Shown in pieces: positions 7,401 through 57,305 of a DNA stretch of 64,000 nucleotides; the stretch's first letter is position 1; every line of letters starts with the position of its first letter. The position numbers and the translations under genes were made by a program. Source of the stretch: Ruditapes philippinarum (Eukaryota); contig NW_026860746.1 in NCBI RefSeq assembly GCF_026571515.1, positions 1 through 64,000 of the forward strand. Reading direction: 5' to 3'. A model generated the notes under the pieces. The model made no database searches, was not told where the DNA came from, and was given only the letters and a program-made list of their open reading frames with translations.

Positions 7401-10400
7401 TGTAATTGTTAAATCCTATGTGGCAGAGCATTGAAGGTTGCAGGCCACAAATCCCTTGCCTCTCACTGCTATTGGTTCAAATCCCATCAGAATCTTTGGA
7501 TTATTTAAGTGAGGAAACTATCCTGCTGTCTCGCTGAAGGTCAGTGTCTGCTCTGTAAGTCCTATACCCCTAGTTAGAATTTTTTGGAATATGGTTCATA
7601 TTTGCATCTTTACAATGCAATTTGCAGAACTGACACATCCACTGTGTTGGCTCAAGGTTATATGTCATCATTGAAGGTGAAATGTCAGAATTTTCAAGAT
7701 ACTTTTCGAACACCTACAATAAATAGAGATGATAATTGTTACAAGCAATAATTCATTTAAAAGTTCAGTCAAATGGGATTATAAGGTTTTGAATTGTTTC
7801 TTTTCCTTTTCAGAAAGTGTAGTCATGCACACCTGGTGCAGTTATTACAGGATAGTGGTACAGCTCCAATTTTAGAGGTTTTACGGTGTGACCAAGAGGA
7901 ATGTAAGAATATTTAAAAAATTTGTGTAATTTAATGCACTTATATAATTATTAAGAACAATTATATTTTTTGCATATCTAGAGTCAGGGGTTTAATTAAC
8001 AATAAAGATAGTTTTGTTACTATTTGAGAATATTCTGAAGAGATAAATATCTTAGAAAAAAAGAAAAATTCCATCCAAATAAGCCATTTATAAAAGAACA
8101 GAAATCTCTGAAGAAAAAAAAGCTGTAAAAAACAAGAGACATTCCTGAAAAAGGCAGATATTTTCCTGGGATTAAAATTGTTCAGTGTAATATTAAATTG
8201 GCTAAAAATAATTTTCATTTAGCGAAACAAGAATTGCTATTTAGTTCCATCATATCATGAATAATGTAATGTGATGTTGTTACATTCGACTGACTTTGTT
8301 GCTTTCAAATTACATTTGCCTGGAATTGGATGAACAACATTCATTTCCTGTCTCTAGACATGTTATTGTAATGCAATATGTGAACTTATATAGTGAGTGC
8401 AAGCAATTAAGTCTAGGATCTAGATATCTCTATCACAGTGATACCGATAGGTTGTTTTTGTATTTTCTGATCGCAAGATCAGTAAATACATAGCTAACAT
8501 CCACGGTCTAACACAAATTTTCCTAACAGACCTAACAACGCAAAGTAGTTCTCACTCAGAACTGCTTAAAAACCAGCAATTTTAAAAGAATAATTTTTAA
8601 TGTATGCATTTAACGAATTACAGTGCATTAAAAGTTTAGAGTAGTCAATAGAAATATGAGGTTACAATCACACATTTTGCGGATGAATATCTTTTTTACC
8701 CAATGAAAAATGTTTGGCTATTTCCGTAAAGCTTAATCAATGAAAATGCTATTTTTAGCTATGTCGATTACCGAATACTCCAGAGCGTAGTACATGTACA
8801 CATAAATCTGACTGTCGAGTAGTGGCATATATACATGTCGTACTGTTTTGGCGAGAAGATTTTCGCTAAATTATTTTCATCCGTGTTAAACAACAGGTTT
8901 ATAGTGAAGAAAATACCTCGAAATTAGTAAGGATTACAAACACGGAATGGAAATTCTCAATTTAGAATTACAATGTATTTGTTATTATTCAAGCTACATA
9001 TGTATTACTTCACCGTGGTGCAGAGGTAGCGCGCTCGTTTAGGGTGTGACAGGCCCAAGGTTCAAACCCTAGTCGAGGGCAACTTTTTTTTTTGAAGTGC
9101 CTTTTTTAAGGAAGTAGCCGATAAAGTATGGTTGCATAAAAAATGAAAATGATTTTTTGATGCAACTCTAGTCATGCAAAATTCCATATGTATCAATCTC
9201 AAACTGTTACAGACGCAGTCGCTGCGTAAGATTAATTATAGTATATAAAATAAACTTATATAGGAAAATACATACAGATAGTCAGTATGATTTAGATTGC
9301 AAAGATCAGAAAATACCACAGAGGTTGCAGCCCTTTGATTTTTATGAGTTTTAGAGTTTGTTGTTTGATTTTGAGATGACAATGACCTTTGGTGAAGGTT
9401 ATTCACCAGTCAGTTGTAACCCAATCCTACCAAATGAAGCCATTTTTTGGCCCATTATCGTAGAATTTTCGGTATCGATCCATAGTATGTACTTTAGTCA
9501 TCAGATTTGTAGAAAATACAGACAAATGGTAGAAGTAAACAGATTGAAATCTAGCCCAACCTTGATAATACTAAAAAACATCATGGTCCCAGATGATTAC
9601 TCATTCTTTAGTGTAGCAATGGATTGTAATAATCTCGGTAATATCATAAAATACAATTAAAATTGAGGCTAATAGATCACTATCTATGGCATTGTCTGCC
9701 CCCATGAAGAAATAAAGAAATAAGAATAGGGGGGGGGGGGCATCTAACTGTAAACTAAACAAAAGAGAACAATGAGGTTTAATATTCTGTTACAATAAAG
9801 TAAGGGGCCTAGCCTCTATCAAACAAAAGAAAATAACGAAAGAAATGGCCCCTTATTTAAATTCAGCTAGATGTCCATCTGTATGTCTGAAGACAATATT
9901 GGTTTCTGCAGGATAACTTTTGAATGATTGTGTTTATGCCTGGCGTGTATGTATGTTATACCAAAAGACAGGTTAAGTTCAATTTTGGATGCAATCAACT
10001 TCAATTAACTAATATCTAAATCTGTTTTTCAGATCCATACAGCTCTGGGGCCCAAGGTTCAAATTCTTCCGCATCATCAACTTCGAGCCATGCCGAGTCA
10101 GACTGGACAACACAAGATAATAAACTTATAGTTGACAAGGAAGGGAGGACGTACCTTGAAAGAGTAAGGTCCCAAAATAACTTATCGTGGATGGCAATTT
10201 TAAAATCTTAACTTACAACAGATTTTTGGGTTTCTGATAAAATGTAAAAAAATTTTAAACATATCTTTTCAAATTTTGCATTCTAAGGTCTGTGTGAAAG
10301 CCTACTTAAAGTTCACAAATTTGCCCCAATCAAACTGATTATCATTAAAAGATTAAGTGCTACAGTGCCTACCAGTCCAAGTGGTTTAGGTTGTTGACTT

Positions 10401-13400
10401 CAAATCACTTGTCTCTCACCTCTGTGGGTTCAAATCCTGTCAGAAACATCGGATTTAAACTTACGGAAGGTCAGTGGTCCTAAAGGTGTCTGCCTGAAAT
10501 CAGGATTACCTAAGGTCCTCATCCACCATCATGAAGCTGGTACATATATTCACATTTTCTCTGTCTGTGTGACATTAAATTCATCAAAAGTAAAACAAAA
10601 ATGATAGCTTGGACAATTTTAAGCATGTCACAGAAGCACTGAAAATCTTTATAATGTTCCTTAATTCACAGGTGGTAGGGGGGACATAAGATATTTTTAG
10701 TTTTCTGTATTTAATTGTCACAAAAAAGTCTTTCCACCTAAATAACAGCCTTCAGACTTCACAGATTTTATATTATTACCCTTCCAGATTTTTTCCGCCT
10801 TTTTGATTGGATATTGATCACCCGAAAGAAATTGATATAACCGAGCCAGACGGGTAATATACACACTAAATTTCCCCGTTGGGTACCCAACGTTGTAAAC
10901 GACATGCGCTGAGGTGATGCGCGTACGGTTCGATTTTACGCGGTGTAAATTCCGATTTACAAGCACTTTTTAACTGTCAAATGATAAATATTTACCAAAG
11001 TAGAGTAATGATACAAATTCCCATCAGTATTGAAAACAAATATGACCTTGTGAAAGCTTGATATTAATTACAAAAAAGTGCTTTCAATAGACTACTCCTT
11101 TTCTCTTGTTTACATTCGTTAGGTACGGGAAAATACGTCATGTATTTATGTGACGTCATGTTGTGATGAAGAGGTACCCTAAAGGGAATCTTATTTCGAC
11201 GTTTCATTTGAAACAGCAATGATTTTTTTAAAAAATCGTCTAAACTCGGCAGGGGAAGGGTAATAAAATTATTATTTTGGTTTTGGAGTGATATATGTGG
11301 ATATATTACCTGCCAAGATAAAATATCACCCTCGCCTAACGGCTCGGGTGATATAAAATCTTAGCAGGTAATATATCCACATATATCACTCCAAAACCAA
11401 AATAACATATAATATTTACCTACCAACACACTTAGAGATCACAAGGTCGAAGGTCAAGGTAGTGCTTGTTTTATATTGATCTTTATATGTTTCTTCAAAT
11501 GTGTTGAGTAGGGCATTTTAGGATTTGAAAACCATTCCAATTTATTTCAGATCTAACAATCAAATGCTGCAAGATTTTAGAACCTTTCTTATTTTTTAGA
11601 TTTAAAAAAAAGAAGCTGATAGTGTAACAAAATCTTGTAGATCTATTTAAGCCCTGCATTATCAGAGTTTAACAGGACTTAACAAATTTTTTATAGTGCT
11701 ATATGTTTATGAGCACAAAAATGTCATCAAAAATCAACAAGCAAGACTAATGAGTAATTTTTTGCAGGCAGAATTTTTGCTAACCACTAAGGAAAGGTCA
11801 AAGGTCAAGAAAGCATGGATAGAGTATGAAAGCACTAGGTAAGAAAAAAAAATCTTATAATATATCTAGTAATCTTTTATAATACGCCAAGTTTATAAAG
11901 TGCTATTTTCAAGCATATGTACCCTGTTAATTCTGTACAAATTAAAGAAATTTTTATATGGATTTGCCCAGCTTTGAATTTGAAACAGTTCATTCACCAT
12001 GAGTTTAAGGGATTTCAATATTAAAGTACAAATTTTTAGCTACCAACAGTATAGAGCTTGGTCAGACTGCTTGGATGTGCAGGCATCAGTCTGTACAGTC
12101 AGACCTGGGGTTTTAGCGGTGACAAAGACTAATCACTTTCAGTTCCAGCAGGTTAAGGGTTAAATAAATCTCTTTTTCATTTCAGTAACATAGTGGAGTT
12201 GTTTGAATCTGTTTCTGCTGTCCTGGACACGCCCTCCAAGAAGACATTATGGATGTTTATCTTGGCAAGACTTTCACCACCTCATCAACAGTATTGTATT
12301 AACCAAATTTCCCTGCCTAGAGACATTCTGTTAGGTAAGGTCCAAATTATCCTTTCTTAAAGTTATTTTGGGCTTTACAAATTCTTTTATTCCTCAGTGA
12401 CATTTTGATAGTCTTATATTGGGGTGTCCATGGCTGAATTGTTAAGGTTGTTGATTTAGAACTACATGTACTTGTCCCTCACTGCAGTGGGTTTGAATCC
12501 CACCAGAGACTTTGGATTCTTTCATATGAAAAATTTATTGCATTAGCTTACAGAATGTCAGTGTTTCTACTTGTATGCTCACTCATTCCTGAAATAAAGC
12601 ACAGAGGGGCAACTGAGGGGCACCAGTTTAGCTGAAAAGTGGCCATATGAGACAAACAAATGGATTGATAATGTATAATTCTTTGAGATGATAGGTTCAG
12701 TCTTACATTTGGCTAGCTATATAAATAATACATAAGGAATAATAGGCTTCCTTGACAGAGTAGTTCGGTTCATTGGAATGCCATTCACTGCTGTTGGTTT
12801 AACTCCCACAATGGAGGCTGATTTTTTTGTGTGAGGAAGCTAACCAGTGCCAGCTAACTTAAGGTTTGAGGATCTATTCAAGTGTCTGCTTTAGTCTGAA
12901 AAAAATCTGAGGTCTCTTCCTTATCATTAATAGTGATCAGTTACCACAGAGTTATATATTTAAACCAACCAAGACAGAAAATAGAAAAATACCTTTGTTG
13001 AAAGCAATTTAAAATAAGTGTCTACATAATTATTATTTTCCATATAGGTGTTTATTAAAAAATCACTCATACATATGCTTGAACAGATCAAAAAAGGTTA
13101 AATTGAGATATAGTAGTAATGTTTTTTGTACAAGCAAATTTACAGCAATAAAATGATAGTTTAAGAATACCTGTTGCAATAGTAGATTATTATATCAGTA
13201 ATAACCACTGTTTAAGTTAGAAGCTGCTGTTTATAAAACATGTACATCTGTTTGATATTTTTAGACAAAAGTCTCTTTTGTTTTTTTTATTTTCAGAATG
13301 CATAGAAAAAATAGAACATGGCAGAAATCACCAAAACTGGTCAGGAGATGGTAACATATGTTTTATTTTATTATTCTATTGTATAAAGTCAAAGATATAG

Positions 13401-22400: not shown

Positions 22401-25400
22401 TGTAAACAGGATTATACATGTAGCTGAATAAAGCATTCAATTTGGAACTGGTACTGAAAAAAAAAATTCAATGTGTACTTATAGAATAACAATATGTGAA
22501 CAAATATTTTTTGTGTAATAACTTGGCTTGGCTGTTTAGAAATTGGATCTTTCCAGAATTCAAATATCCAAAATTATCTAAAATTAATCTCAAACACCAG
22601 TTGGGTCGGAATATTATACAAGATTCATTTTGTTTTTTGAGACATAATATTTGTTAAAGAAATATCAGTTAATATTTTATAAAGAAATATCAGTGACTTA
22701 TAATACAGAGGGATAAGAAGCTCAAAAAATAGAACATTTTCCCATCCAGGCTCACAATCCCTTGCACGAGATTCATAGGCCCTTGAAGTTGATCGATTTC
22801 ATCCATATTGTTTTACGTGACCGAACGTTTGAGTTGATTATTGATCTCTTATTGTTATTCATTTAATTTTATATATATTTACATATTATAGTCATATTTA
22901 TTCACAAATTTGAAAATTCAAGCTTGCGGGATAATTAATCGCTGATACAGATTTTAAGTGTATGACGTCAAAGCTGACTCTCTGTGGAAATATGAAGCAG
23001 ATTAATGAAGCATTTAAGAAAATTAAAAATTTGAACATGTTCTTGTAATTATTTACTGAGTTGTACTTGTTAATTTACTTTCAACGAATAATTTGAGTAC
23101 AATTTATGATAAAGTATTAATTGTGATATAATATACCTGTGATGTTACAGATTGGAGAAGCTACTGATTTACAAGATGTTGTCCGGTATCTAGAACTCGA
23201 GCAATACTTCTCCACAAAATCTCCAAGACACAGTAAGTTGATATTTCTAGTACCTACATCGTAATTTGATATTGCACCGAAATAGTAATTTTTTATCTCC
23301 CAGACTTAGAAAAATTTGATACATGTATTTCTTCAATTAAGTAATTTGATGTCTCACTGACATAAAAAGGTGATATCAATTTTGTCAAGCATCAAGGGAT
23401 TTTGAAACAATTTGGCACAATTGTGTAGCTTCAAATGAGATTGTGTGTCATATGCAAGACCTAGGCTCCGAGGTCAAGGTCACACTTAGAGGTCAAAGGT
23501 TACCTTGTCCAGCATATAACTGTTATGCATCAAAAGATTCTGAAATAACTTGGCACAAATATGAAGCTTGATGAGTTGGTGTGTCATGCACAAGACCTAG
23601 ATCCCTATTTTCAAGGTAAAGGTCACACTTAGAGTCAAAGGTCTGTCATAAGGAAATCTTGTTGGGCCCATAACTCTGTCATGTATGAAGGAATTTTAAA
23701 ATAACTATGCACAAATGTGTAGCATGATGAGATCGGGTGTCATGTGTAAGACCTGGTGTCAAGGTCATAATAAGAGGTCAAATGTCAGCAATCAGTGTGA
23801 ATATACAAAAGAAACTGTTTTTTATCAACATTTTTTGTTTATCTTTTTTTTTTAAGGTATTTTATTGCAAAAAAAATGGTGTCCTAAGATATGTGGCAGG
23901 AGCATTCATGTTTTTCAGACACATTTATAGTAAAAGATATTTTGTAAGTAATAAAGCTATGGTTTCTAAAAGCTGAACTTGAAGCCATAGTATCAAATTA
24001 AAAATTATACCTTATTATGCTTCCCGAAGGGTGAGGTTATAGTCGCCACTTTGTCCGTCTATCTGTCCATCCTCACTACCACATGGAGATAGGGGGCCAT
24101 CTAACTGTAAACTTAACAAAAGAGACAAATAAAATTCATTTCGTAACAATAGAATAAGGGGCCTTGGCCCATCTATTAAACAAAAGAAAATAACAATAGA
24201 AATGGTTCTTTATCACTATTTGGTTGCATGTCCATCTGGTTGTCTGTCTGCCCCTACGCATCTCTAGTCCGGGACATAACTCTGTAACAACAAGAGGTAT
24301 CCACATGAAATTTTAAGAGTAGATAGAATTCATTGGGTAGATGATTGTGCAGTGCACAAGAACCATAACTCTGCCTTGCCTAATTTTGGAATTACTGCCC
24401 TTTGTTCATTTTTTATACTTTGAACTTTGTCCAGGACATAACTCTAAAACTATAACAGATACATGTTTAAACATGAAACTTTGTAAGTAGAGAGATCTCT
24501 TTGGGTAAAAGTGCAGTGCAAAAGAACCATAAGTCTGTCTTGCCTAATTTTGGAGTTATTGTCCTTTGTCCATTTCTAAACTTTAAACATTGTGCAGGAC
24601 ATAACTGTAACTATAAGAGATATCAACATGAATCTTTGTTGGTAGATAGATGTCATTTGGTAAAAGTGCAGTGCAAAAGAACCATAACTGTCCCTTGCCT
24701 AATTTGGAGTTATTCCCCTCTGTCTATTTCTAAACTTTGAACCCAGGGCATAGAAACTTTTAAGGTAGATAGATCTCTTTGGGTAGAAGTGCAGTGCACA
24801 AGAACCATAACTCTGCCTTGCCAAATTTTTGAGTTATTGCCCTTTGTTCATTTTTATACTTTGAACATTGTCCTTGACATAACTGATAGTATAATAGATA
24901 TGAACAAGACACTTTGTAGATAGATAGATCTAATTGCATAGTGCATTGCACAAGAACTGTAACTCTGCCTTGCTTAATTTTGGAGTTATTGCCCTTTGTT
25001 CATATTTACATTTTGAACTTTGTCTGGGACATAACTCTGACACTATAAGAGGTATACTTTTCTGTGTCCAAAATCTATTCAGGGAGCATCCGGTTCATCC
25101 TGTTCTTGTTTTAACTTAGTTTTAAGAAAATGAATTTTATTTCTGTTTGTTATTTTAGAAACCAAACTAACTGGTAAGGATTTATTCCTCAGGATAAATT
25201 TTTATTATAGACTGACTTGTATTTATAATTTGCATAATCATTTATATATTGCTTTATAATGTCAATTTATTTAACTATTTCTTTTCCTAGACATGTTGTA
25301 AACAAATTGTATTTGCTTTAAAAGGGTGTAAAGCTATAGAAGGTTGAAATGATGCATTTTATGTGTTTTTCTTATTCTTATGGTCAAATCTTACAAAAAA

Positions 25401-28400
25401 AATGTCTTATGATATTTAACCCTAAACCTGCTGGAACCATAAGTGGTTAGCCATTGTAATAACTACTGTAGAGCTAGCCTAGCCGGCATATTGGTGCATT
25501 GTAACGTTTGTAGCTGAGGGATTTTTTGTGTGGAGGCGCGGGGGGATTTGGGGGATGTCTGTGTGTGTTTTTTGGGGTTTTTTTGTATTTTGATATTGAA
25601 ATCCCTTAAATAAATTTTAATGGAATACTCTAAATTAAAAGCTGGGCAAATCCGCGGGTTAAAGGGTAAATACACATAAATTCTATATAAAATGGAGAAA
25701 AAAAACCCTGTGACAAAATATTCAATTAATTTATGTTGAGTAAGATACTAGCAAACACTCAACAAATTTTAGCCAGCCCAGTTATATACAATGTATATAG
25801 ATTACACCCTTTGAAGTCTGTATGGTAAAATATCTCATCTGTTATATTCATCTATGACAATTTTCATAATATTTTATTATTATTCATAAAAATATTTCAT
25901 ATATGGTTAGATTTCCAGTGTGACAAGGCCTTTTCACAGTGTACATGTGTAAAACATAGAATGTCAGCTCTTAAAAGTATATTTTACTTTACAATATTGG
26001 CATGGTGTGCGGAATTATAAAGCCTGCTTGATTAATATAACAAAGAATAGTTCAAGAATTGCTTGATTTATAACAAAGACTAATAGCATCTGTCATATGT
26101 TGCTGTTTGAATCAGAATATAGGTCCTGATGGGGACTGGTCCAGTTCCCAGAGAGGCGGATATTCTGATCTTTTCTTGCATATTCTACCATATTTTAAAT
26201 TCTTTACCTTATTAAAACAAATTTCCATGGAAATTTTTATCATTTCACCCATAACTATTTTCTTACAGCAGTGTATGAAATTACAACTCCATTCATAACA
26301 GCAAAATTCAACATCCTAAGCATGTCACTGTATAGCTTGTCCCCCATGCCAGATGAAATTTCCGGCATGGGTTAAACTAACGGAAACACCAGTCTGATAT
26401 GCAAGAAATATTATTCCCTAGTAAATTAGAATGATGCCCTTGCTTATTTGTATATAATTAGTCCTTTGTTTATTTATAACAAATTACTATTTGGTATTAT
26501 AAGTCTTTTATTATGTACAAGATTTATTTATCCCTTTACCTCATATATATGCGAAACAACGCACTTTCGACTCTATCTCAATCCATTGAGAAGTTGCAGC
26601 ACTTTGAAATCAATTTTGATAGAAAAAATCCACACAAAATAGTGATTTTTGGCAATTTTAAGATGTCCCCTTGTTGCCATGGTAACAGGAAATTTAAGCC
26701 TGAGTATGTGGTTACAAAGGAAATGATCCGGTCAACATTTGTGCCAAGTTTGATTAGTATTGAAGCAGTTTTTATAGTTTTATAGCAATTTGAACTTGTA
26801 ACGGGAGACTTTTCAATGAAAACAGCCATTTTTCACAAAATGCTCATGAAGTAATGGGTTAAGTCATATTCATATACGTTCTTTTTCTAGTTCCTAGATT
26901 ATTTATGACATAATTTATTGATATCAGGTTTATTTTTGAAAAAATTGGTTTTGAGTCTTTGATTAAATACCATATTTACTTGGTGTAAGTCCTTGATTAA
27001 GTACCAGGTTTATTTATTAGAAATTGGTGTAAGTCCTTGATTAAGTGCGAGGATTATTTATTAGAAATTGGTGTAAGTCCTTGATTAAGTGCCAGGATTA
27101 TAACAAATTGGTGTAAGTCCTTGATTAAGTGCCAGGTTTATTTATTAGAAATTGGTGTAAGTCCTTGATTAAGTGCCAGGATTATAACAAATTGGTGTAA
27201 GTCCTTGATTAAGTGCCAGGTTTATTTATTAGAAATTGGTGTAAGTCCTTGATTAAGTGCCAGGATTATAACAAATTGGTGTAAGTCCTTGATTAAGTGC
27301 CAGGTTTATTTATAACAAATTGGTGTAAGTCATTGATTAAGTACCAAAATAATGTATAACCAAATGATATTATTCCTTGATTAAGTCTTTTTTTATCCCC
27401 CGCCGAAATTTTTCGGCGGAGGATATAGAAATAGTCTCCGTCCGTCCGACCTTCCGTCCTTCCGTCCGTCCTTCCGTCCGACATTTTTGTCCGGAGCATA
27501 TCTCTAAAAGTATTTGAGTTATCAACTTGAAACTTCATAGGTGGATAGACCTCATTGAGGAGGAGTGCAGTGCACAAGAATGATAACTACCTTGCATGAT
27601 TTTTGAGTTATTGCCCTTTGTTATTTTTCAAAATTAATTTTTGTCCAGAGCATAACTCCAAAAGCCTATGAGATATTAACATGAAACTTCATAGGTGCAT
27701 AGATCTCACTCAGGAGGTGTGCAGTGCACAATAATGATAACTCTACCTTTCATAATTTTTGAGTTATTGCCCTTTGTTATTTTTCATACCTAATTTTTCA
27801 CCTGAGTGGAGCATAACTCAAAAAGTGTTTGAGATATCAACATGAAATGTCATAGGTGGATAGATCTTATTGAGGAGGAATGTTGTGCGCAAGAATGATA
27901 ACTCTTCCCTATACAATTTTTGAGTTATTGCCCTTTTTTTTCATGCTATTTTGTCCAGAGCTTATCTCAAAAAGTATTTGAGGTATCAACTTGAAACTTC
28001 ATAGGTGGATGGATCTCACTGAGGAGGAGTGCAGTGCTTAAGAATGATAACTCTACCCGGCATTATTTTTGAGTTATTGCCCTTTGTTATTTTTCAAAAT
28101 TAATTTTTGTCCAGAGCATAACTCAAAAAGCCTTTGAGATATCAAAATGAAACTTCATAGGTGCATAGATCTCACTCAGGAGGTGTGCACTGCACAAGAA
28201 TGATAACTCTACCTTTTATAATTTTTGAGTTATTGCCCTTTGCTCTTTTTCATACTTAATTTTTCAATTCAATTTTTTTCTCAAAAAGTATTTGAGGTAT
28301 CAACTTGAAACTTCATAGGTGGATAGATTTTACTGAGGAGGGATGCAGCACACAAGAATGATAACCTACCCTGCATTATTTTTCAGTAATTGCCCTTTGT

Positions 28401-31400
28401 TATTTTCAGCCATCAGTATTCACATAGGTTTCAAATCTGTAATCACTATAGCCATCAGTTTTCATTACCAAAAGACCTCTTAAAATGGAATTATTCCGCT
28501 CTACTACATATACATTCTTCCAATGAGCAAACACATTTGGCGGGGGATGGCCATGTTGACATGGCTCTTCTTTTATTTATAACAATATTACACACTCAAT
28601 ACTTTTATCTATTTATGACATCTTTTAATATTAGCATTTAGTGAAAACATTATAATTATAATAGTTAAAGCATGTTTAGAGTTGATTACTACCTAAAAAT
28701 GATATTAAAAACTGCATTGTTCTGATTGTGAATAGATTATAAAACTGTTTCTATAATGTAGCATGCACTTACCACTGTCATCCATTAAGAGGCTAAACCT
28801 TAACCAAGCCTGCAACATTTTTCAATTTTGCCATTTCTGACATTCTTTACATATTCCTTTTCTATCTCTATTTTGTTTGTGCAACACTCCTGATAGTGCA
28901 TATGTTTCTCTGATTAGACAGTTAGTCAATGATTGAAATTAACATGATATTGTGAAATTAACATGACATTGTGAAATTAACATGATATTGTACATAAGTT
29001 TTATTTGAACATCATGAAATTAACAATGTAAATTTTATTTGTCATATGTGCTCAACGTATATTTCAAATTTTTAAATAAGGTTTTATTTGACTGTCATTA
29101 CATGTATATGTTTCATAGTTTTATATTTGATTGCATATTTTGGATGCACCTTGTCATAATGTTCTAATTGATTGTACATAAAATGGAAAAGATGACAAAA
29201 CCAACATAATGCGTTTGCGACCAGCATGGAAACAGACCAGCCTGCGCATCCACGCAGTCTTATCAGGATCCATGCTGTTTGCTTACCAACCCTATTACAA
29301 GTAGAGAAACTAATAGCGAACAGCATGGATCCTGATCAGACTGCACGGATGCTTAGGCTGGTCTGGATCCATGCTGGTCGCAAACCCATTATGTTGGTTT
29401 TGTCATGGCGCGGCTCATATTATAATATTATGTTCTGGTCAATAAAACTTTTTCCAAGTGGTTTAAAATATCTGCAGTGTTCTTACCTTAAAATTTCTTA
29501 CACTGTTTGAAATCTTAAAAATAATGGAGATGTGGTCTGTTTGTTAATATGCCTGCCTCTCAACGTGGTATATAAACCGTGTGTCCGAATATTAAACCAG
29601 TACTGGAATTCAGACTGAAGAATAGAATATCAAAAGTATTGTACATGACTAATGGGTTTTTGGGTGTAATTTTAATCAAAATGCCAACTCTGATTTGATA
29701 AGAAAGCAGACTTGTATATGAGCCGTGTCATGACAAAACCAACAGAATGCGTTTGCGACCAGCATGGATCCAGACCAGCCTGCGCATCCGCGCAGTCTGA
29801 TCAGGATCCATGCTGTTCTCTTACCAACTCTATTACAAGTAGAGAAACTGACAGCGAATAGCATGGATCCTGATCAGACTATGTTGGTTTTGTCGTGACA
29901 CGGCTCATATGATTTTAAAACATGATAGTTTTCACATAGTGTAGTGTAGGTAATCATGAAATAGGACAGAAAACATGATAGATAGGTAATTATGAAGTAG
30001 GACAAGTGCTTACAATCATGTGAGGAAGTTGTACAGCACTGTTATAAAAATTGACAGTGATTCTACCAAGCTTCCTGTTTAAGCAAGGAATTGGGCATCT
30101 TGTTTTATTGCTAAATAATGATTCCATGGTATGTAACACTGTAATCCCACTCAAAAATGAAATAATATGAATTATGTAAGTTATTTAAATGGTTTTTGAA
30201 TATGCTAGTTTTATGGTAATGTTATCTTGCAGGGCTTCCAGAAAAGAAGTCGAAAATATGTATACTTAATCCAAAGAAAGCCTATAATCTATGTAAGTTT
30301 TTATACATGTATATACAATTTAACCTATGAATAATTTTTATTTTACTATGTTACAGTAATAGTGGGGCTGAGTGGTTATTGACTTCAAACCAATTGTCCC
30401 TTTCTGCTGTGGGTGTGAATCTTGAATTCATTCATGTGAGGAAACTATCCCACCTGCTTTCGGAACGTTGGTGGTTCTACTTAGGTGCCTGTTTGTGCCT
30501 GAAATAATGCATGGATGGGCACCTGTGGTATTCCTCCACATACAAGGTATGAGCTGGAAAGTCCCCATATGACCATTACTGTGTTGGTGTGTCATTAAAC
30601 CCAACCAAAAAAAAGAAAGAAATAAAATAAAAATCAGTAATAATGTCTAAAATATTATGCTTTGGCTTAATAGCTGGAACATCATAATTCATTTGTTTCT
30701 TAAAAGTTTTGGTAATTAGTACAGTTATTTAGTTATGTTCAGCAAGAAATTTATAAGGCCTGTAAAATTTACATTGCTTTTATTTATAACCAACAATAAC
30801 ATGGCCTTGGAAAAAAACTGTGATATGATATTAACCAATCATTCTAACACAATGTTTTATTTATGCTCAGCAATAATTTTGGGGCAGTTGAAGTTGACCT
30901 TGAGTGAGATACGGCATGCCCTGTACATGCTTGATGAGGAGGTTTTAACACCAGAACTGCTGAGACAACTTCTTTCATATGCTCCAAACAAACAAGAGGT
31001 AAGAAATTTAGCTACCTTTCACACCTAATACTACATAATTGTGTTACTCCCACAAAAAAAAGCCAAAATTTGACAGCTTTTTGAACAATTCTGAACCTTC
31101 TAGCTCAACTATACAAAAGTGCCACTTGGGACATGGCTGTAGCGTGTGAAAGTTTAGTTTTTTGCTAAAAATAGGTACACTTTGTATATTATTAAAGTTG
31201 TTTCATTTGGTATTGCTCATTTTACTCATGGAAAGGTAAGTAACTCTACAGATAAAACACTGTCCTATTTTCAATCTCCCATGCAGTGATCTCCCCTTAT
31301 CAGTCCACCATTTTATAATTTTTCAGCTTTTGAATATTTTTTTTCATTATTTTGTATAAAGTTAAAAATAAAACAGAAAGAGAAAAATGATCTTCGACTT

Positions 31401-43400: not shown

Positions 43401-45812
43401 ATTGTCTCTGGTTATGAGTCATAGGCCTCATTGTCCTTGTTTTTAACAAGGTCGTTTTCTCTTTACATATTAAGTCTGATAACTCTTACACAGGATAACT
43501 CTTACACAGGATAACTCTTACAAAGTCACAAAAATTATGTAGTTATCAAATTTTGGAGCACAAAAACATCATTGATCCTTCTTTCAAAGAATCTTGACAA
43601 TTCAAACAGTTGTCCTTCTTCCCCTGGTATAGCTAGCTACTCATATGGTGAAAAGTGTTATTCTTTTGGACACATTTTTAGTTTGTCACAATTTGGTTAA
43701 TGACACTGTGACAGAGTATCATTTGTTTGTCAGTGCTGCCTCGGTAGTTTACCTTGGTGTAGAAGCAAAAACAAAACTTACTGAAAAAAATATAAATACT
43801 CGTACATTTTCCAGGAACACTTGTTAATGAAATATATGCAAGTGTAAACCTGAAATACTGACTTTTAAATCTTACAGAAACAAACAGAAAATATATGTTG
43901 AAAAATAATGGTTATACATGTATTTCATTGTGTCATTCCAGGATATTTCTAACACACTCGAGAAGTTTGGATCGCAGAAAACAAACCTTGGTATCAATGA
44001 TAAATTCCAAGATGTGATGGGACATTTCATATCACAGGCATCAGATGAAATACAAAGTTTGTTCCGTCTGAATGCAAACACCATGGAAGAATTTCACAGC
44101 ACTGTTCAGTACTTCGGAGAAGATCCTAAAAAAGTGACAACAACTGAACTGTTTGGAGTATTTGCTGAGTTTATCACCAAGTTTGAGGTGAGGGCATTGT
44201 TAGTGTGTATTTTGATAAGTTACATATGTTACCTTTATTCACCCCTTAACCAGTTGATTTTTTTTGTATCTTTGAATTTGGAACAGTCCATTCAAATTAC
44301 AAGGGATTTCAATGACAAAATACAAAAATTGAACTGCCAACAGTATAGAACTGTATGTAAAATACAGGCTGGATTGGCTATATACTGGTAGCAAAGGCTA
44401 ATTGCGATGCCAAAGGCTTATTGTGGCAGCAAAGGCTAATTGTGGCGGCAATGGCTAATGCTAATTGCAGTGGCAAAAGTTGATTGCTTTGGTACCGGTT
44501 CTCTAGTAGGTTATGGGTAAGGGTATGATATGTCTATTTATAGTATATTCAAATTCTGCTTACTTTGTCATCCTTTGTGCTTATTTTTATTCATAAAGTG
44601 ATTTTTGTGCCCCCACGTTAGTGGCAGGCATTTAGATTTACCCTTGTCCGTCCGTCCGTCCTTCCGTCCGTCCGTTAACTTTTGTGTCGCACGTAACTCA
44701 AAAAGTATTTGACCTACAGTCATGAAACTTTACAGGAATGTTGATCAGCATGTGTTGTTGTGCACCTGGGTATTTTCGTCTGGATATTTTTAGTATTTTC
44801 AGAGTTATTGCCCTTGACTTAGTAAAATTTTGCAAATTTCAACTTGTGTTGCATGTAACTCAAAAAGTATTTGACCTAGAGTCATGAAACTTTACAGAAA
44901 TGTTGATCAGCATGTGTAGTTGTGCACCTGGGTATTTTCGTCTGGATATTTTTAGTATTTTCAAAGTTATTGCCCTTGACTTAGTAAAATTTTGCAATTT
45001 TCAACTTGTGTCGCATGTAACTCAAAAAGTATTTGACCTAGAGTCATGAAACTTTACAGGAATGTTGATAAGCATGTGTTGTTGTGCACCTGGGTATTTT
45101 TGTCTGGATATTTTTAGTATTTTCAGAGTTATTGCCCTTGACTTAGTAAAATTTTGCAATTTTCAACTTGTGTCGCATGTAACTCAAAAAGTATTTGACC
45201 TAGAGTCATGAAACTTTACAGGAATGTTGATCAGCATGTGCAGTTGTGCACCAGGTATTTTCGTCTGGATTTATTTAGTATTTTTAGAATGTTGCCCTTC
45301 ACTTACAAAATTTTTGCAATTTTCAACTTGTGTCTCAAGTTACTCAAAAAGGATTTGACATAGTCATTAAACCTTATGGGCAGGTTGCTCAGCATATTTA
45401 GATTTGCACCTGGGGTTTCGCTTGTGGATTTATCCAGTATTTGTAGAGTTATTTCCCTTGGCTTAGTAAAAAGATTGACAGAACAGTGGCGCGGAGGGGG
45501 CACCCGAGTCCTATGGACACATTTCTAGTTGTCATATTGTTAGGAATATCAATTTAATGACTTTGCTTGTTATCCCCCGCCGAATAGGTAGCGGGGAATA
45601 TAGAAATAGTCTCCGTCCGTCCACCACATTTTTGTACAGAGCATAAAAAACAACACTAAAAAAAACCAATTTATTTTAGGTTTCCTATAATTGACATAAT
45701 TGAACTGACTCTTAATTATAATACCTGATAATGTTCTTTTTCCTTTTTTTCATTTCAGAAAGCTCACCGGCACAACATTATGTACAAACGATATGCAAAT
45801 GAGAAAACTTAA
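1339..45812 (+). CDS. GRID2IP: Delphilin-like formin (HN/PDZ/HN/HN/FH1/FH2), 5'-partial, 27 exons
   Basis: Hand-spliced exons join in frame (3199 nt). PDZ: SFGFVIKGSNP. HN: VLDTPSKKTLW. FH1 polyPro. FH2 motifs VKRINWEK, KKAYNLSI, GNYMN, TKTSDNK. PDZ plus FH2 with no DAD is the delphilin architecture. Confidence 0.9.
3075..3381. mobile_element. Kolobok-like MITE
   Basis: TTAA-AGGGACTCCACTGA...TCAGTGGAGTTCCT-TTAA; AG..CT ends with a TTAA duplication. Confidence 0.75.
3900..6930. repeat. 27-bp minisatellite (GTGACAATAGTGTATGACTGTAATACT)n
   Basis: About 80 near-perfect units at 4710-6900, degenerate to the left. Confidence 0.97.
7135..7290 (+). CDS. GRID2IP: Exon: PDZ N-terminal part
   Basis: ALQIVRENNSFGFVIKGSNPAYIETVDPNGAAEKGGLQPGDFVIKLNGIDV; ttgcag / ag|gtatat. 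Confidence 0.93.
7814..7902 (+). CDS. GRID2IP: Exon: PDZ C-terminal part
   Basis: KCSHAHLVQLLQDSGTAPILEVLRCDQEE; tttcag / t|gtaag. Confidence 0.9.
8456..9340 (+). mobile_element. Helentron-like non-autonomous element with tRNA-like cassette
   Basis: 5' hairpin GTATTTTCTGATC-gcaa-GATCAGTAAATAC; 3' subTIR GATCAGAAAATAC plus palindrome GGTTGCAGCC. Confidence 0.6.
9009..9093 (+). pseudogene. tRNA-Pro(AGG)-derived Pol III cassette
   Basis: A box TGGTGCAGAGG, CTCGTTTAGGGTG arm, B box GGTTCAAACCC, T10 run. Confidence 0.65.
10033..10163 (+). CDS. GRID2IP: Exon: Ser-rich linker
   Basis: PYSSGAQGSNSSASSTSSHAESDW...YLER; phase 1-0, gtaagg donor. Confidence 0.85.
10375..10600 (+). mobile_element. tRNA-headed SINE, family A
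   Basis: Similar to 30362-30615; B-box-like GGTTCAAATCC. Confidence 0.7.
10771..11405. mobile_element. Non-autonomous element ending in a long hairpin
   Basis: Inverted ATTACCCTTCC / GGAAGGGTAAT, then a hairpin with ~59-bp arms at 11272-11404. Confidence 0.65.
11768..11838 (+). CDS. GRID2IP: Exon: HN repeat A, part 1
   Basis: AEFLLTTKERSKVKKAWIEYEST; ttgcag / ag|gtaag. Confidence 0.87.
11920..12163 (+). mobile_element. Short TTAA/piggyBac-like MITE (relatives near 15798, 25417, 44243)
   Basis: Ends AAGGGTTAA; shared internal GGATGTGCAGG / CTGATCTTGGTCTGCACTGG-like core. Confidence 0.55.
12186..12334 (+). CDS. GRID2IP: Exon: HN repeat A, part 2
   Basis: NIVELFESVSAVLDTPSKKTLWMFILARL...; phase 2-1. 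Confidence 0.9.
12420..12660 (+). mobile_element. tRNA-headed SINE, family A (second degraded copy at 12745-12970)
   Basis: TGGCTGAATTGTTAAGG A-box-like, GGTTTGAATCCC B-box-like, family body. Confidence 0.75.
13297..13350 (+). CDS. GRID2IP: Exon: short linker
   Basis: ECIEKIEHGRNHQNWSGD; strong polypyrimidine tract, phase 1-1. Confidence 0.72.
14189..14330 (+). CDS. GRID2IP: Exon: HN repeat B, part 1
   Basis: ...SSFQQQVEYLLTSRERSMLKKALQLYSEN; phase 1-2. Confidence 0.9.
15436..15596 (+). CDS. GRID2IP: Exon: HN repeat B, part 2
   Basis: NVDNLIEDLDVILDTPSKRTLWMYIIPLL...; phase 2-1. Confidence 0.9.
16327..16373 (+). CDS. GRID2IP: Exon: linker (alternative donor possible after 16367)
   Basis: ESESTLPKKSTSKK(VH); two in-frame donors, aag|gtacat and cat|gtaagt. 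Confidence 0.75.
17145..17220 (+). CDS. GRID2IP: Exon: linker
   Basis: PYMSSDEEHDFISRSGDRKSKSKPT; phase 0-1 is needed to join its neighbours. Confidence 0.78.
17710..17811 (+). CDS. GRID2IP: Exon: amphipathic/coiled-coil-like segment
   Basis: PLGGLDLSIIKELEETRRAVQEVKEFLTKGQSP; phase 1-1. Confidence 0.82.
18131..19060. mobile_element. Tc1/mariner-like MITE
   Basis: Imperfect TIR TACTGCGAATTCACTTATATTCGTGGG / CCCACGAATAATAATGATTTTACAG; repeated TTCGTGG subterminal motifs. Confidence 0.7.
19120..19602 (+). CDS. GRID2IP: Exon: large low-complexity linker
   Basis: Open frame that includes ORF 19233; ttacag / g|gtatgt. Confidence 0.87.
20491..20679 (+). CDS. GRID2IP: Exon: helix and start of FH1
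   Basis: ...ALKQLDAAVAAE...VPAPPPPPPPP; phase 1-1. Confidence 0.9.
21160..21343 (-). mobile_element. Short tRNA-headed SINE, family B
   Basis: Minus strand GGTGGCCAAGTGGTTAAGG...GGGTTTGAGCCC head plus body. Confidence 0.7.
21390..21517 (+). CDS. GRID2IP: Exon: end of FH1 and FH2 lasso
   Basis: APPPPAP...MNVKRINWEKLDQQRVENTVWEQ. Confidence 0.93.
21528..22118 (+). mobile_element. piggyBac-like MITE
   Basis: TTAA-CCTTTT...AAAAGG-TTAA; homologous to 26530-26862 and 38178-38777. Confidence 0.75.
23151..23232 (+). CDS. GRID2IP: Exon: FH2
   Basis: IGEATDLQDVVRYLELEQYFSTKSPRH; a|gtaagt. Confidence 0.92.
23380..23932 (+). mobile_element. Degraded HINE-type element with AGGTCAAGGTCA core repeats
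   Basis: About three diverged units containing AAGGTCACACTTAGAGGTCAAAGGT. Confidence 0.6.
24013..25112 (+). mobile_element. HINE-type element with internal tandem repeats
   Basis: subTIR ATGCTTCCC / GGGAGCAT, GTCC/GTCT microsatellite, repeated AACCATAACTCTGCCTTGCC units. Confidence 0.72.
25159..25173 (+). CDS. GRID2IP: Candidate 15-nt microexon in the FH2 linker
   Basis: tattttag|aaaccaaactaactg|gtaagg, phase 1-1, no stop. Confidence 0.6.
26530..26862 (-). mobile_element. piggyBac-like MITE, internally deleted copy
   Basis: Reverse-complement match to 21528-21810; ends ATGGGTTAA. Confidence 0.72.
26940..27345. repeat. 44/40-bp alternating minisatellite
   Basis: AATTGGTGTAAGTCCTTGATTAAGTGCCAGG at 27022, 27066, 27106, 27150, 27190, 27234, 27274, 27318. 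Confidence 0.95.
27392..28572 (+). mobile_element. Complete HINE (DINE-1/pearl-like)
   Basis: ATCCCCCGCC subTIR with hairpin, (GTCC)n, six ~155-bp units, GGCGGGGGAT subTIR, palindrome GCCATG-ttga-CATGGC. Confidence 0.85.
29192..29420. mobile_element. Palindromic MITE
   Basis: Long inverted arms ATGACAAAACCAACATAATG / CATTATGTTGGTTTTGTCAT. Confidence 0.85.
29716..29910. mobile_element. Palindromic MITE, same family, right arm partly deleted
   Basis: ATATGAGCCGTGTCA...TGACACGGCTCATAT. Confidence 0.85.
30233..30292 (+). CDS. GRID2IP: Exon: FH2
   Basis: LPEKKSKICILNPKKAYNL; t|gtaagt. Confidence 0.92.
30362..30615 (+). mobile_element. tRNA-headed SINE, family A (Meta-domain-like; family uncertain)
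   Basis: Body GGTGGTTCTAC...GCCTGAAATAATGCATGG...CCTCCAC...GCTGGAAAGT with A-rich tail; fragments near 1500, 7420, 14675, 19900. Confidence 0.8.
30871..30998 (+). CDS. GRID2IP: Exon: FH2
   Basis: SIILGQLKLTLSEIRHALYMLDEEVLTPELLRQLLSYAPNKQE. Confidence 0.94.
31612..31680 (+). CDS. GRID2IP: Exon: FH2
   Basis: MEQLDSYNGDIEELSPPDRFTYE; phase 0-0. Confidence 0.92.
32221..32307 (+). CDS. GRID2IP: Exon: FH2
   Basis: MSRVPGYEQRLKALVFKGNFQEKISEMKD. Confidence 0.93.
32320..34600. mobile_element. 2.3-kb non-autonomous Tc1/mariner (pogo-like) element
   Basis: Perfect 24-bp TIR CACTGGAGCCGCGATATAGCGCTC, TA flanks, no transposase ORF. Confidence 0.88.
34640..34900. mobile_element. MITE
   Basis: TGTAATGCTCTCCCGCC / GGCGGGAAAGCATTACA, 17-bp TIR with 1 mismatch. 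Confidence 0.7.
36825..36893 (+). CDS. GRID2IP: Exon: FH2
   Basis: HLQHIRKASLELRHSKKLSKILE; gag|gtaagt. Confidence 0.93.
37822..37908 (+). CDS. GRID2IP: Exon: FH2 GNYMN motif
   Basis: LILAMGNYMNQGNQRVGEAAGFKIRFLSQ. Confidence 0.95.
38178..38777 (-). mobile_element. piggyBac-like MITE
   Basis: TTAACCCATTA...TAATGGGTTAA; homologous to 21528-22118. Confidence 0.78.
39986..40115 (+). CDS. GRID2IP: Exon: FH2
   Basis: LEITKTSDNKLTFLHVLAEAVFNKFPEL...AAK. Confidence 0.94.
40129..40362. mobile_element. Palindromic MITE (29192 family)
   Basis: Same arms and core; half copy at 61247-61318. Confidence 0.8.
41140..41192 (+). CDS. GRID2IP: Exon: FH2
   Basis: FSNVLLNQELQDLRKVLQ; phase 1-0. Confidence 0.9.
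41670..43050. repeat. 25-bp minisatellite (CTTGGTAAGTGACAATTAAGGTTTC)n, interrupted
   Basis: 25-bp period, for example 42191 and 42216; GC-richer variant at 41670-41990. Confidence 0.88.
42310..42816. mobile_element. Kolobok-like MITE inserted in the minisatellite
   Basis: TTAA-AGGGAGACACAGGCAAAAT...ATTTTGCCTGAATATCCCT-TTAA. Confidence 0.75.
43942..44187 (+). CDS. GRID2IP: Exon: FH2 C-terminal part
   Basis: DKFQDVMGHFI...YFGEDPKKVTTTELFGVFAEFITKFE. Confidence 0.95.
44603..45530 (+). mobile_element. Complete HINE with five ~162-bp units
   Basis: GTGCCCCC / GGGGGCAC subTIR, (GTCC)n, units at 44693, 44855, 45017, 45179, ~45339, 3' GTCC-tat-GGAC. Confidence 0.85.
45570..45645 (+). mobile_element. 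Isolated 5' head of the 27392 HINE family
   Basis: TATCCCCCGCCGAA...ATATAGAAATAGTCTCCGTCCGTCC. Confidence 0.75.
45759..45812 (+). CDS. GRID2IP: Terminal coding exon
   Basis: Strong polypyrimidine acceptor; KAHRHNIMYKRYANEKT*. Confidence 0.88.
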   Translation, partial: KAHRHNIMYKRYANEKT

Positions 45813-53184: not shown

Positions 53185-53425
53185 GAATAGCTGAATCGGT
53201 TGAAGCGCTAGACTTGTAATCTCGACATTGTGGGTTCGATTCCCGGGATGGCCAACTAAAATTACTAAACAGACTTTCGGATGAGACTTGAAATCGACGT
53301 CCCGTATATGCACCTAAACACTTGGCGCGCTAAAGAACCAGGAGAATCTTATCTTTTTGTGTCTGTAACTTGCTCTGTCCGCTAAAATGACTAGAGTACA
53401 CAAACGGTGGCGAGTATAAATAAAC
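53185..53425 (+). mobile_element. tRNA-headed SINE with Deu/Nin-like core
   Basis: A box TAGCTGAATCGG, B box GGTTCGATTCC, core CTTTCGGATGAGAC..AAATCGACGTCCCGT. Confidence 0.7.
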
Positions 53426-53863: not shown

Positions 53864-54709
53864 CGGAATGCCGTTAGGGCCATCGCCTATGAATGGTTTG
53901 ATCTGAAACACGATACTCGAAAGTACGATGATGAAAACGCGAAATCACGAAACCACCATGGTGAAAACGCGACAGTACGATGATGAAAACACGACAGTAC
54001 GATAACGAAAACGCGATAATACGACAGTACGATGATGATAATAGAATTAACTACCGTGTTTTCATCATCGTACTTCCGCGTTTTCACCATCGTTATATCG
54101 TGATTTCGCGTTTTCATCATCGTACTGTCGCGTTTTCACCATCGTTCTATCGCGTTTTCATCATCGTACTGTCGTGTTTTCATCATCGTACTATCGCGTT
54201 TTCACCATCGTACTGTCGTGTTTTCATCATCGTACTATCGCGTTTTCATCATCGTTCTATCGCGTTTTCATCATCGTACTATCGCGTTTTCATCATCGTA
54301 GTTTCGTGATTTCGCGTTTTCACCATCGTACTATCGACTATCGCGTTTCAGGTCAACACATTCATAGGCGATGGCCCTAACGGCATTCCGGAATGCCGTT
54401 AGGGTCATCGCCTTTGAATTGTTTTATCTGAAACGTGATACTCGACAGTACGATGATGAAAACGCGAAATCACGAAACTACGATGGTGAAAACGCGACAG
54501 TACGATGGTGAAAACACGATAGTTTATCGCGTTTTCATCATCGTAGTATCGTACTGTCGCGTTTTCATCATCGTACTATCGCGTTTTCATCATCGTAATT
54601 TCGCCTTTTCACCATCGTAGTTTCGTGATTTCGCGTTTTCACCATCGTACTATCGACTATCGCGTTTCCGATCAACACATTCATATGCGATGGCCCTAAC
54701 GGCATTCCG
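53864..54709. mobile_element. Head-to-tail dimer of a foldback TIR element
   Basis: TIR CGGAATGCCGTTAGGGCCATCGC occurs four times; internal inverted ~21-bp arrays; outer TA flanks. Confidence 0.85.
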
Positions 54710-56269: not shown

Positions 56270-56635
56270 ATTAAACTTTACCAAAATCTTAATCAAGGTT
56301 TCATCTGCAAAACTTGACCAATGTTTTATTGCAAAACTTAATCAAGGTTTATCTGTAAACATTTGACAAAAGTTTTATCTGTAAACATTGACGAAGGTTT
56401 TATCTGTAAGTATTTCTGAAGGTTTTATCTGTAAGTATTTCCGAAGGTTTTATGTGTAAACCTTAACCAAGGTTTTATCTGGAAGTATTTCCGAAGGTTT
56501 TATCTGTAAACCTTAACCAATGTTTTATCTGGAAGTATTTCCGAAGGTTTTATCTGTAAACCTTAACCAAGGTTTTATCTGTAGGTATTTCCGAAGGTTT
56601 TATCTGTAAACCTTAACCAAGGTTTTATCTGCAGG
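56270..56635. repeat. 25-bp minisatellite with 50-bp dimer
   Basis: AAGGTTTTATCTG followed by alternating TAAACCTTAACC / GAAGTATTTCCG. Confidence 0.92.
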
Positions 56636-56658
56636 TTTGCTATCCCTGCTGGTAGCTA

Positions 56659-57305
56659 TTTTTGTTGGTTTGGGTTGTCAGAACAAACAAATAATGGTAG
56701 CGAAATTTCAGACTCTAATGCTGTTAATTGCAAATGCCGAAAGTAGTCCGCTTTTTTGAAGCGGTTACTTCCCTTTATATGTAACACAAAGGCCGAAAAA
56801 TTCAGGGGAGATCACTGCGTAAATATGGTCACATGACAGGCGCATTAATTTTCAAGCAAAATAATTCCCGAATGGTCGAAGATTTCTAATATTGTTTTAT
56901 TCTTTAAAGATATACATGCTTATAGTAAGCGCCATGATTATTTACACAAGTTAGCGTCGTTACAAACCATAATTTAGAATAATATGGTTTTCTTCAGGCC
57001 GTTTACATATAAATTCGCCGTGGCCGAGGGGTTTGCGCATTCACTTAGGAAGCGAGAGGTCTCGAGTTCAAATCCCAGTTAAGGCAACTCATTTTTTTTT
57101 CAAATTGTTTAAGTCAAATAAACATTGGATTGAATATAAGTGTTGCAATTATAAAATATATAGTCTTATAGCCAATCTACTACTATTAAAACGCTGGAAA
57201 GCATTGGTGGCACTATACAAAAACAAATTGTTTTACAATCTCACAACCTTCACCTTTCTGACATTCTGAGACCCAAACAAATTCAGCGCCTTCTGTGCTT
57301 TGATT
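56659..57305 (+). mobile_element. Helentron-like non-autonomous element with tRNA-like cassette
   Basis: 5' TTTGTTGGTT..AACAAACAAA hairpin, 3' CCCAAACAAA plus AGCGC-cttct-GTGCT plus TTGATT. Confidence 0.55.
57014..57100 (+). pseudogene. tRNA-Pro(AGG)-derived Pol III cassette
   Basis: TGGCCGAGGGG A box; CTTAGGAAGCGAGAGGTCTCGAGTTCAAATCCC resembles the tRNA-Pro 3' half; T9 run. Confidence 0.68.

Follow-up and report, generated by a model that had tools for sequence, protein, structure and literature searches.

A tRNA-like cassette occurs twice, between different ends, in the 64,000 nt of Ruditapes philippinarum DNA analysed here (contig NW_026860746.1, positions 1 to 64,000; hereafter the window), and the question raised by its copy at 56659-57305 is whether the cassette has been kept there for a purpose or merely carried along. 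The earlier note on this DNA had taken the element for a second, diverged copy of one family, in which the cassette persisted while the termini diverged and might serve the element's life cycle. The reading that we prefer, with a probability of roughly 0.7, is that the tRNA-like piece is a decayed passenger, captured once and passed as a block of about 200 nt between two families of non-autonomous Helentrons (HINEs) with different ends, each copy likely being made by the Rep/helicase of a larger partner.

The element at 56659-57305 is one copy of a non-autonomous family of about 650 nt, which we named B (Table 1). When the window's own 1.4-Gb genome was searched, the best 40 of 3,497 candidates were 89-94% identical to this copy and nearly all full-length, and 30 aligned loci gave a consensus of 649 nt with sharp ends. 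A 17-nt pattern for the B 3' end has 2,584 exact matches in the genome, against 0 for its control. In four public runs, the two ends of the copy fall in bins where depth on the contig jumps by orders of magnitude, and among the contig joints listed for these runs there was none that skips it whole. At its 5' end stand T5, a hairpin and a subterminal repeat; the 3' end carries the inverted counterpart of that repeat, together with a short hairpin and TTTGATT. The subTIR pair is 12 nt long in the B consensus and 11 nt with one mismatch here. Because substitutions have weakened it, the 5' hairpin is only slightly more stable than shuffled sequence in this copy (z -1.0, compared with -7.3 in the other family of the window, A), while the 3' hairpin of B is a 5-bp stem at the expected place after the 3' subTIR, with a stability no better than that of shuffles. 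To the left, a 50-nt tandem repeat at 56282-56638 stops about 20 nt before the element.

Table 1. Features of the two window elements (positions are those of the window).
Feature	Position	Strand	Remarks
Full copy of non-autonomous Helentron family B	56659..57305	+	620/660 columns identical to the consensus; sharp ends
5' T-run and 5' hairpin holding the 5' subTIR (56665-56676)	56659..56691	+	Substitutions present in this B copy's hairpin
5' arm homologous to the 5' end of EB (G000:C6487)	56659..56906	+	B 1-177 89% identical, B 178-248 72% identical
Block common to family A: AT-rich upstream part, tRNA-derived unit, T-run	56937..57100	+	Lacking in EA and in EB
tRNA-derived cassette: A box from 57021, anticodon AGG 57047-57049, B box 57066-57074	57014..57089	+	
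T9 run forming the right-hand edge of the shared block; predicted Pol III terminator	57092..57100	+	
3' arm homologous to the EB 3' end: 3' subTIR 57270-57281, hairpin 57285-57299, TTTGATT end	57244..57305	+	
Family A copy, ends matching the 20.7-kb coding Helentron EA (G000:C13302)	8455..9340	+	
Shared block as found in the A copy, with its cassette at 9009-9084	8870..9095	+	

By its ends, its target and its partner, the element at 56659-57305 is a HINE. There is no flanking duplication in 24 of the 28 B junctions that could be parsed, nor in 22 of 29 A junctions, and where there is one it does not exceed 3 nt; the paralogous empty sites consist of short T-runs, which fits insertion without target-site duplication. 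An inverted repeat pairing with the 5' subTIR is present in both families. SubTIRs, a 5' inverted repeat and a T-rich target without duplication are the traits ascribed to HINE and DINE-1-like elements by the available text of PMC4067079, PMC7492417 and PMC11417382. Two further kinds of structure were seen in the window: GTCC-type microsatellites adjoining tandem units of 155-162 nt (24267-28406 and 44646-45471), in a layout like that of oyster Cg_HINE and pearl-like elements, and long hairpins (11283-11393, 54355-54423 and 54468-54608) whose Rfam microRNA matches fall far below the cut-off and which are likely transposon inverted repeats.

Coding partners were sought among 94 Helitron Rep matches, 20 of which, picked for long reading frames, were examined. 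One of them, EB, is a 19.7-kb element (G000:C6487:476800-496520, minus strand) whose first 248 and last 62 nt match B, the latter at 92% identity over B 588-649, and whose set of protein domains (OTU-like, DUF6570, Rep, PIF1 and endonuclease) identifies it as a Helentron. Eight of the nearest relatives of EB included EA, an element of 20.7 kb (G000:C13302:107139-127824, plus strand), the first 278 and last 66 nt of which match A at 92-94%. EA and EB are thus the likely partners of A and B, respectively. Both have interrupted Rep/helicase/endonuclease reading frames and nested repeats; they share 56-72% amino-acid identity, and their non-coding interiors match only in a nested repeat. The cassette is absent from both, with profile scores of at most 4.2 bits compared with 73-108 on true copies, and is also missing from the EA-homologous part of a second copy of the EA family. 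EA and EB are decayed copies, and a loss of the block from them could have occurred. A Rep/helicase gene lying between A ends at G000:C7914 had also been considered as the partner of A, and was set aside as belonging to another Helentron, nested in the opposite orientation. At this locus (L149-L150), T-runs of one A copy have received two insertions: an 11-kb Helentron from another family, and a repeat-bearing element of 2 kb.

Family A, to which the other window element belongs, has a length of 896 nt and 2,818 candidates in the genome, and its 17-nt 3'-end pattern has 2,096 exact matches (control, 3); the window copy has subTIRs of 15 nt with one mismatch. Much of what the earlier note had said of the two elements stands. 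Both are non-autonomous with subTIRs, the subTIRs of the two do differ, all of the motifs named for them are found in both, and the families are old, with older subfamilies about 15-20% apart within each type. The bounds given for the copy at 56659-57305 are right, and those of the other needed moving by one base, from 8456 to 8455. Their description as two copies of one diverged family, however, has to be given up, for A and B are two families.

Likeness between the two window copies is concentrated in and next to the cassette. Their whole-length alignment scores 174, against a shuffle mean of 91, and none of 500 shuffles reaches that score; for the cassette the figure is likewise 0/500, and for the 60-85 nt immediately 5' of it, the sole significant part outside the cassette, 6/500. 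The far upstream (212/500) and downstream (52/500) parts of this alignment are not significant. Comparing the A and B consensuses gave z values against shuffles of 6.6 for the upstream block, 4.3 for the first ~100 nt, 3.5 for the downstream part, 3.1 for the last ~65 nt and 1.1 for the far upstream part; the downstream part was not significant in a local re-test (142/500 shuffles). The proposal that shared sequence reaches past the tRNA-like part is therefore borne out by the upstream block. As a statement about everything outside the cassette, it holds for the block beside it and, weakly, for the termini, and does not extend to the far upstream part.

The block that A and B have in common measures about 160-230 nt and is sharply bounded. 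In up to 48 A-B pairs, drawn from an alignment of 6 A-type and 8 B-type rows with two A copies that lack the anchor motif left out, identity rises from 40% ahead of the block to 71% in its upstream part, stands at 73% over the cassette and falls to 42% past the T-run. In none of the six pairs tested did the upstream part differ significantly from the cassette in identity (p > 0.1 in each), and older B copies have a longer upstream part that aligns with A almost base for base. These observations speak against a cassette that persisted while the ends around it diverged: the ends come from two coding Helentrons that have no cassette, the edges of the block are sharp, and its non-tRNA half is conserved equally well. 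Since an identity of 71% in non-coding sequence is unlikely to be as old as the split between EA and EB, the block appears to have moved between the families after that split. In a tree of the block, which is unrooted and has weak support among the B rows, the A rows group together.

How might such a passage have come about? Rolling-circle copying by Rep in trans is established for the element class. The Rep of a partner would bind the ends formed by subTIR and hairpin, nick them and copy the element by the rolling-circle route. Capture of the tRNA-derived Pol III unit would have taken place at the level of DNA: a Pol III transcript would lack the 90-140 nt of upstream flank that travelled along with the unit. 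Finally, the block may have passed from one family to the other, either through a nested insertion with later deletion or through recombination between copies. Nesting of A in B, amplified as a composite, was found at 5 of 30 cassette loci, with insertion at about B 240, and one junction is common to at least 8 loci. This insertion point does not coincide with the edge of the block at B 279; the composites illustrate a route of transfer without recording the transfer itself. In the composites (L062, L063, L070, L083, L084, L214, L225, L233 and L266), an A-type element with a damaged 5' hairpin lies within B, giving two cassettes. A second amplified composite is seen at L249, L251, L255 and L257, where A copies have in common a nested, oppositely oriented element at A position 802.

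In the cassette itself, an A box and a B box accompany anticodon and T arms of Pro-like type and a weak acceptor stem, with the T-run following. The description that suits it best is that of a tRNA-derived Pol III unit, decayed and possibly mosaic, and not of a tRNA gene. Against the genome's own tRNA genes, a partial set comprising Pro, Val, Arg, Lys and two odd calls, its 3' 47 nt fit tRNA-Pro(AGG) best (33-37/47, followed by Val(CAC) with 29-32). Over the full length Val(CAC) comes close to Pro, and in the 5' third tRNA-Arg(TCT) or a SINE head scores above Pro. The label tRNA-Pro, under which the cassette was first described, thus suits its 3' part and not its 5' third, and neither ARAGORN nor Rfam calls a tRNA in the copy at 56659-57305.

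That the elements carry and amplify a functional tRNA-Pro gene is a reading to which we give hardly any credence. ARAGORN does call a tRNA in 25 of 136 cassette-bearing stretches, 17 of them with AGG, and the anticodon stem is fully paired (5/5) in all four consensuses; one A subfamily even pairs 6 of 7 acceptor positions. The B consensus, however, pairs only 3/7 in the acceptor and 3/5 in the T stem and so forms no full cloverleaf (the window copy has 3/7, 4/5 in the anticodon stem, and 3/5), and the anticodon varies by subfamily (AGG, AGT or ATG). The genome, moreover, has at least 84 pattern matches to tRNA-Pro genes of the ordinary kind elsewhere, mostly clustered; clusters of ordinary tRNA-Pro, -Val and -Arg genes were noted on contigs C1103, C1241, C3922, C5519, C13761, C24 and C9003 of G000. 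As about one fifth of the examined copies are called tRNA by ARAGORN, tRNA gene counts in such genomes may be inflated.

A foreign source for the cassette gained nothing from metagenomes. Scans with a tight cassette pattern gave 0 matches, and a loose pattern gave 64, mostly prokaryotic tRNA genes, none of which matches A or B beyond the cassette. At best, a metagenome match agrees with the cassette at 46-48 of ~58 positions, and host tRNA-Pro at 40-42. Since the pattern itself fixed 24 of the positions and the best among 64 matches was chosen, we do not take this difference as a sign of horizontal origin.

Could the block instead be a small mobile unit in its own right, such as a solo LTR of the Helenus kind or what is left of a SINE plus its flank, with separate entries into the two families? 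We regard this as unlikely. The succession of upstream spacer, tRNA-like part and T-run does resemble the Helenus LTRs in the part of the PMC10886601 supplement available to us, a TG..CA-like pair of ends frames the block in one old A copy, and the 5' third of the cassette is like the head of a local SINE. A pattern of the B box and 3' end, however, had 1,429 matches in the genome, and all 30 loci examined lie inside A- or B-type elements, although the pattern was built from A and B and a more distant free form could escape it. With all 30 so placed, the 5' head, body, tail, target-site duplication and mobility of its own that characterize a SINE are not seen. Nor are the two LTRs, primer site, polypurine tract and 4-5 nt duplication of TRIMp3 elements, as there is one unit per element and no flanking duplication. 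By eye, the candidate LTR ends of the old A copy have no target-site duplication, and 14 nt upstream of the candidate TG start are common to A and B. Motif searches of the Helenus supplement (PMC10886601), with the sequences themselves compared only by eye, gave 0 occurrences for each of two upstream motifs diagnostic of the block, and for one motif of the cassette.

Several SINE-like sequences were met along the way. A family of about 205 nt with a tRNA-Arg-like head, an AAAC tail and target duplications is abundant (L272-L300; 1,258 candidates), and one of its heads is fused into the B copy L234. That copy, with its other tRNA head, had raised the possibility of repeated promoter capture, which was dropped because the head belongs to this ordinary SINE family and 0 of 29 other loci have B ends around it. 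Within the window, a tRNA-like head with a TGT anticodon at 53188-53400 (plus strand; Rfam tRNA 26.6 bits, below the cut-off) probably marks a SINE copy, and is followed by a motif that we take to be V-domain SINE-like.

If the decayed passenger is the right reading, the cassette should be under no special constraint, whereas a role in copying would demand fewer cassette changes on the lineages that produce copies. In trees of 48 A and 58 B copies, substitutions on internal versus terminal branches stood at 29/216 for the cassette, as against 68/540 for the flanks (p 0.81); the corresponding figures for indel events were 6/45 and 12/127 (p 0.58). For the A and B boxes the numbers were 6/46 against the same flanks (p 1.0), a comparison of low power for boxes of 10-12 nt. 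An apparent scarcity of cassette gaps on internal branches (p 1e-6 per column) did not survive a count by indel event. Neither family conserves the cassette better than its flanks, although indels per pair are fewer in the cassette (1.4 events) than in the flanks (3.5-4.2). A role of the cassette in the element's life cycle thus found no backing: copying lineages show no constraint on it, and a sister family amplifies without the block. That sister Helentron group (L346-L391) has the same TTTGATT end, related Rep genes and multi-kilobase copies up to 99% alike; the cassette is absent from 30/30 of its loci over the last 1.5 kb or less and from all 16 re-read over ~6 kb. At L012, L023, L149, L353 and L367, members of A, B and the sister family are each inserted before one short sequence of another repeat, which suggests a shared hot spot.

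A rival to this reading is that the cassette is a working Pol III promoter that aids HINE spread and has been kept by selection in two families, for example because TFIIIC keeps copies open or because a short RNA exposes single-stranded ends. Both boxes are intact in 80 of 101 copies that were not selected on boxes, and since they persist in most copies, some copies could still recruit Pol III factors. The T-run has at least six Ts in 48 of 48 parsed copies. The cassette is retained at 26/30 B and 22/30 A 3' ends, most of the misses being nested insertions of other elements, and no amplified cassette-free subfamily of A or B was found. Apparent copy numbers, although not counted like for like, are also higher with the cassette than without it (B 2,584 and A 2,096 by 17-nt patterns; sister family 155 by a 22-nt pattern). 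In addition, there is a retroelement precedent in Cassandra and Helenus, to judge from the text at hand of PMC7215508 and PMC10886601. On the other side, the branch and identity tests show no constraint, the coding partners and the sister family do without the cassette, a DNA transposon requires no RNA intermediate, and an 11-nt duplication within the cassette has been amplified in one A subfamily (4/30 loci). Four RNA-seq runs, whose 150-nt paired reads are unsuited to an RNA of ~80 nt, read the element on both strands, with depth over the cassette below that of the 5' part and no pile-up of read starts or ends on the element. On balance, we consider a working promoter improbable.

It is tempting to speculate further, and to see in A and B a rolling-circle analogue of Cassandra and Helenus, in which a portable block with a Pol III promoter speeds HINE copying and has therefore spread between Helentron families, so that, in this genome, its carriers would outnumber the other HINEs of their clade. 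This idea, too, seems to us a long shot. If the promoter did raise transposition, however, it would give Pol III a role in the life cycle of a DNA transposon, of which we found no description in the literature searched. Whatever its effect, thousands of units with A box, B box and T-run lie scattered across the genome.

The decayed passenger that we favour can be placed beside several known systems. In the text seen of PMC11481361, bivalve tRNA-derived SINEs likewise have a tRNA-like head with A and B boxes; in A and B, by contrast, the head is internal, a terminator-like T-run follows it directly, and body domain, tail and target duplication are lacking. Cassandra, Helenus and Ajax (TRIMp3 elements), as far as PMC7215508 and PMC10886601 were available, resemble A and B in being short and non-autonomous, with a unit derived from a small-RNA gene that has A and B boxes and a T-run and is unlikely to give a functional tRNA. 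They are, however, LTR retrotransposons that need an RNA copy and whose promoter boxes are selectively conserved, whereas A and B are rolling-circle DNA transposons in which no LTR pair, primer site, target duplication or excess conservation was found. Capture of host fragments by Helentrons is known (PMC4067079, in the text available), and in the accessible part of PMC10701932 (2023) an Arabidopsis tRNA-Cys cluster overlapping annotated Helitrons is presented as a first case of possible tRNA capture by Helitrons. There, structure-based tools did not confirm the Helitron call, and the tRNAs form a single cluster of real genes; in A and B the tRNA is decayed, whereas the element is clear and occurs dispersed, in thousands of copies. 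No description of a tRNA-derived cassette in HINEs was found in the full-text literature searched, including the available text of the bivalve surveys PMC10294476 and PMC11481361, and these families may be held in subscription papers, Repbase, Dfam or the survey supplements.

The closest relatives by structure are the HINE and DINE-1-like elements themselves (PMC4067079; HLE2, PMC11417382; oyster Cg_HINE, PMC7492417). In the portions of these sources that we could draw on, such elements have, like A and B, a 5' subTIR within an inverted repeat, a 3' subTIR, T-run ends, a T-rich target without duplication, and ends in common with an endonuclease-encoding Rep/helicase element. They also have a 3' hairpin, of which the 5-bp stem in B may be the equivalent. 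A and B depart from them in having no microsatellite or central tandem array and in carrying as cargo a tRNA-derived Pol III unit. Oyster Cg_HINEs, within the text seen of PMC7492417, combine related flanks with unrelated cargo, or are related or unrelated throughout; A and B, unlike HINEs of that description, have one cargo block in two families with different subTIRs and partners. They offer a clear case of a rolling-circle transposon that carries a tRNA-derived unit, and also of two families that have different coding partners and yet one internal block in common, which suggests that the interiors of HINEs can change partners, much as SINEs swap tails.
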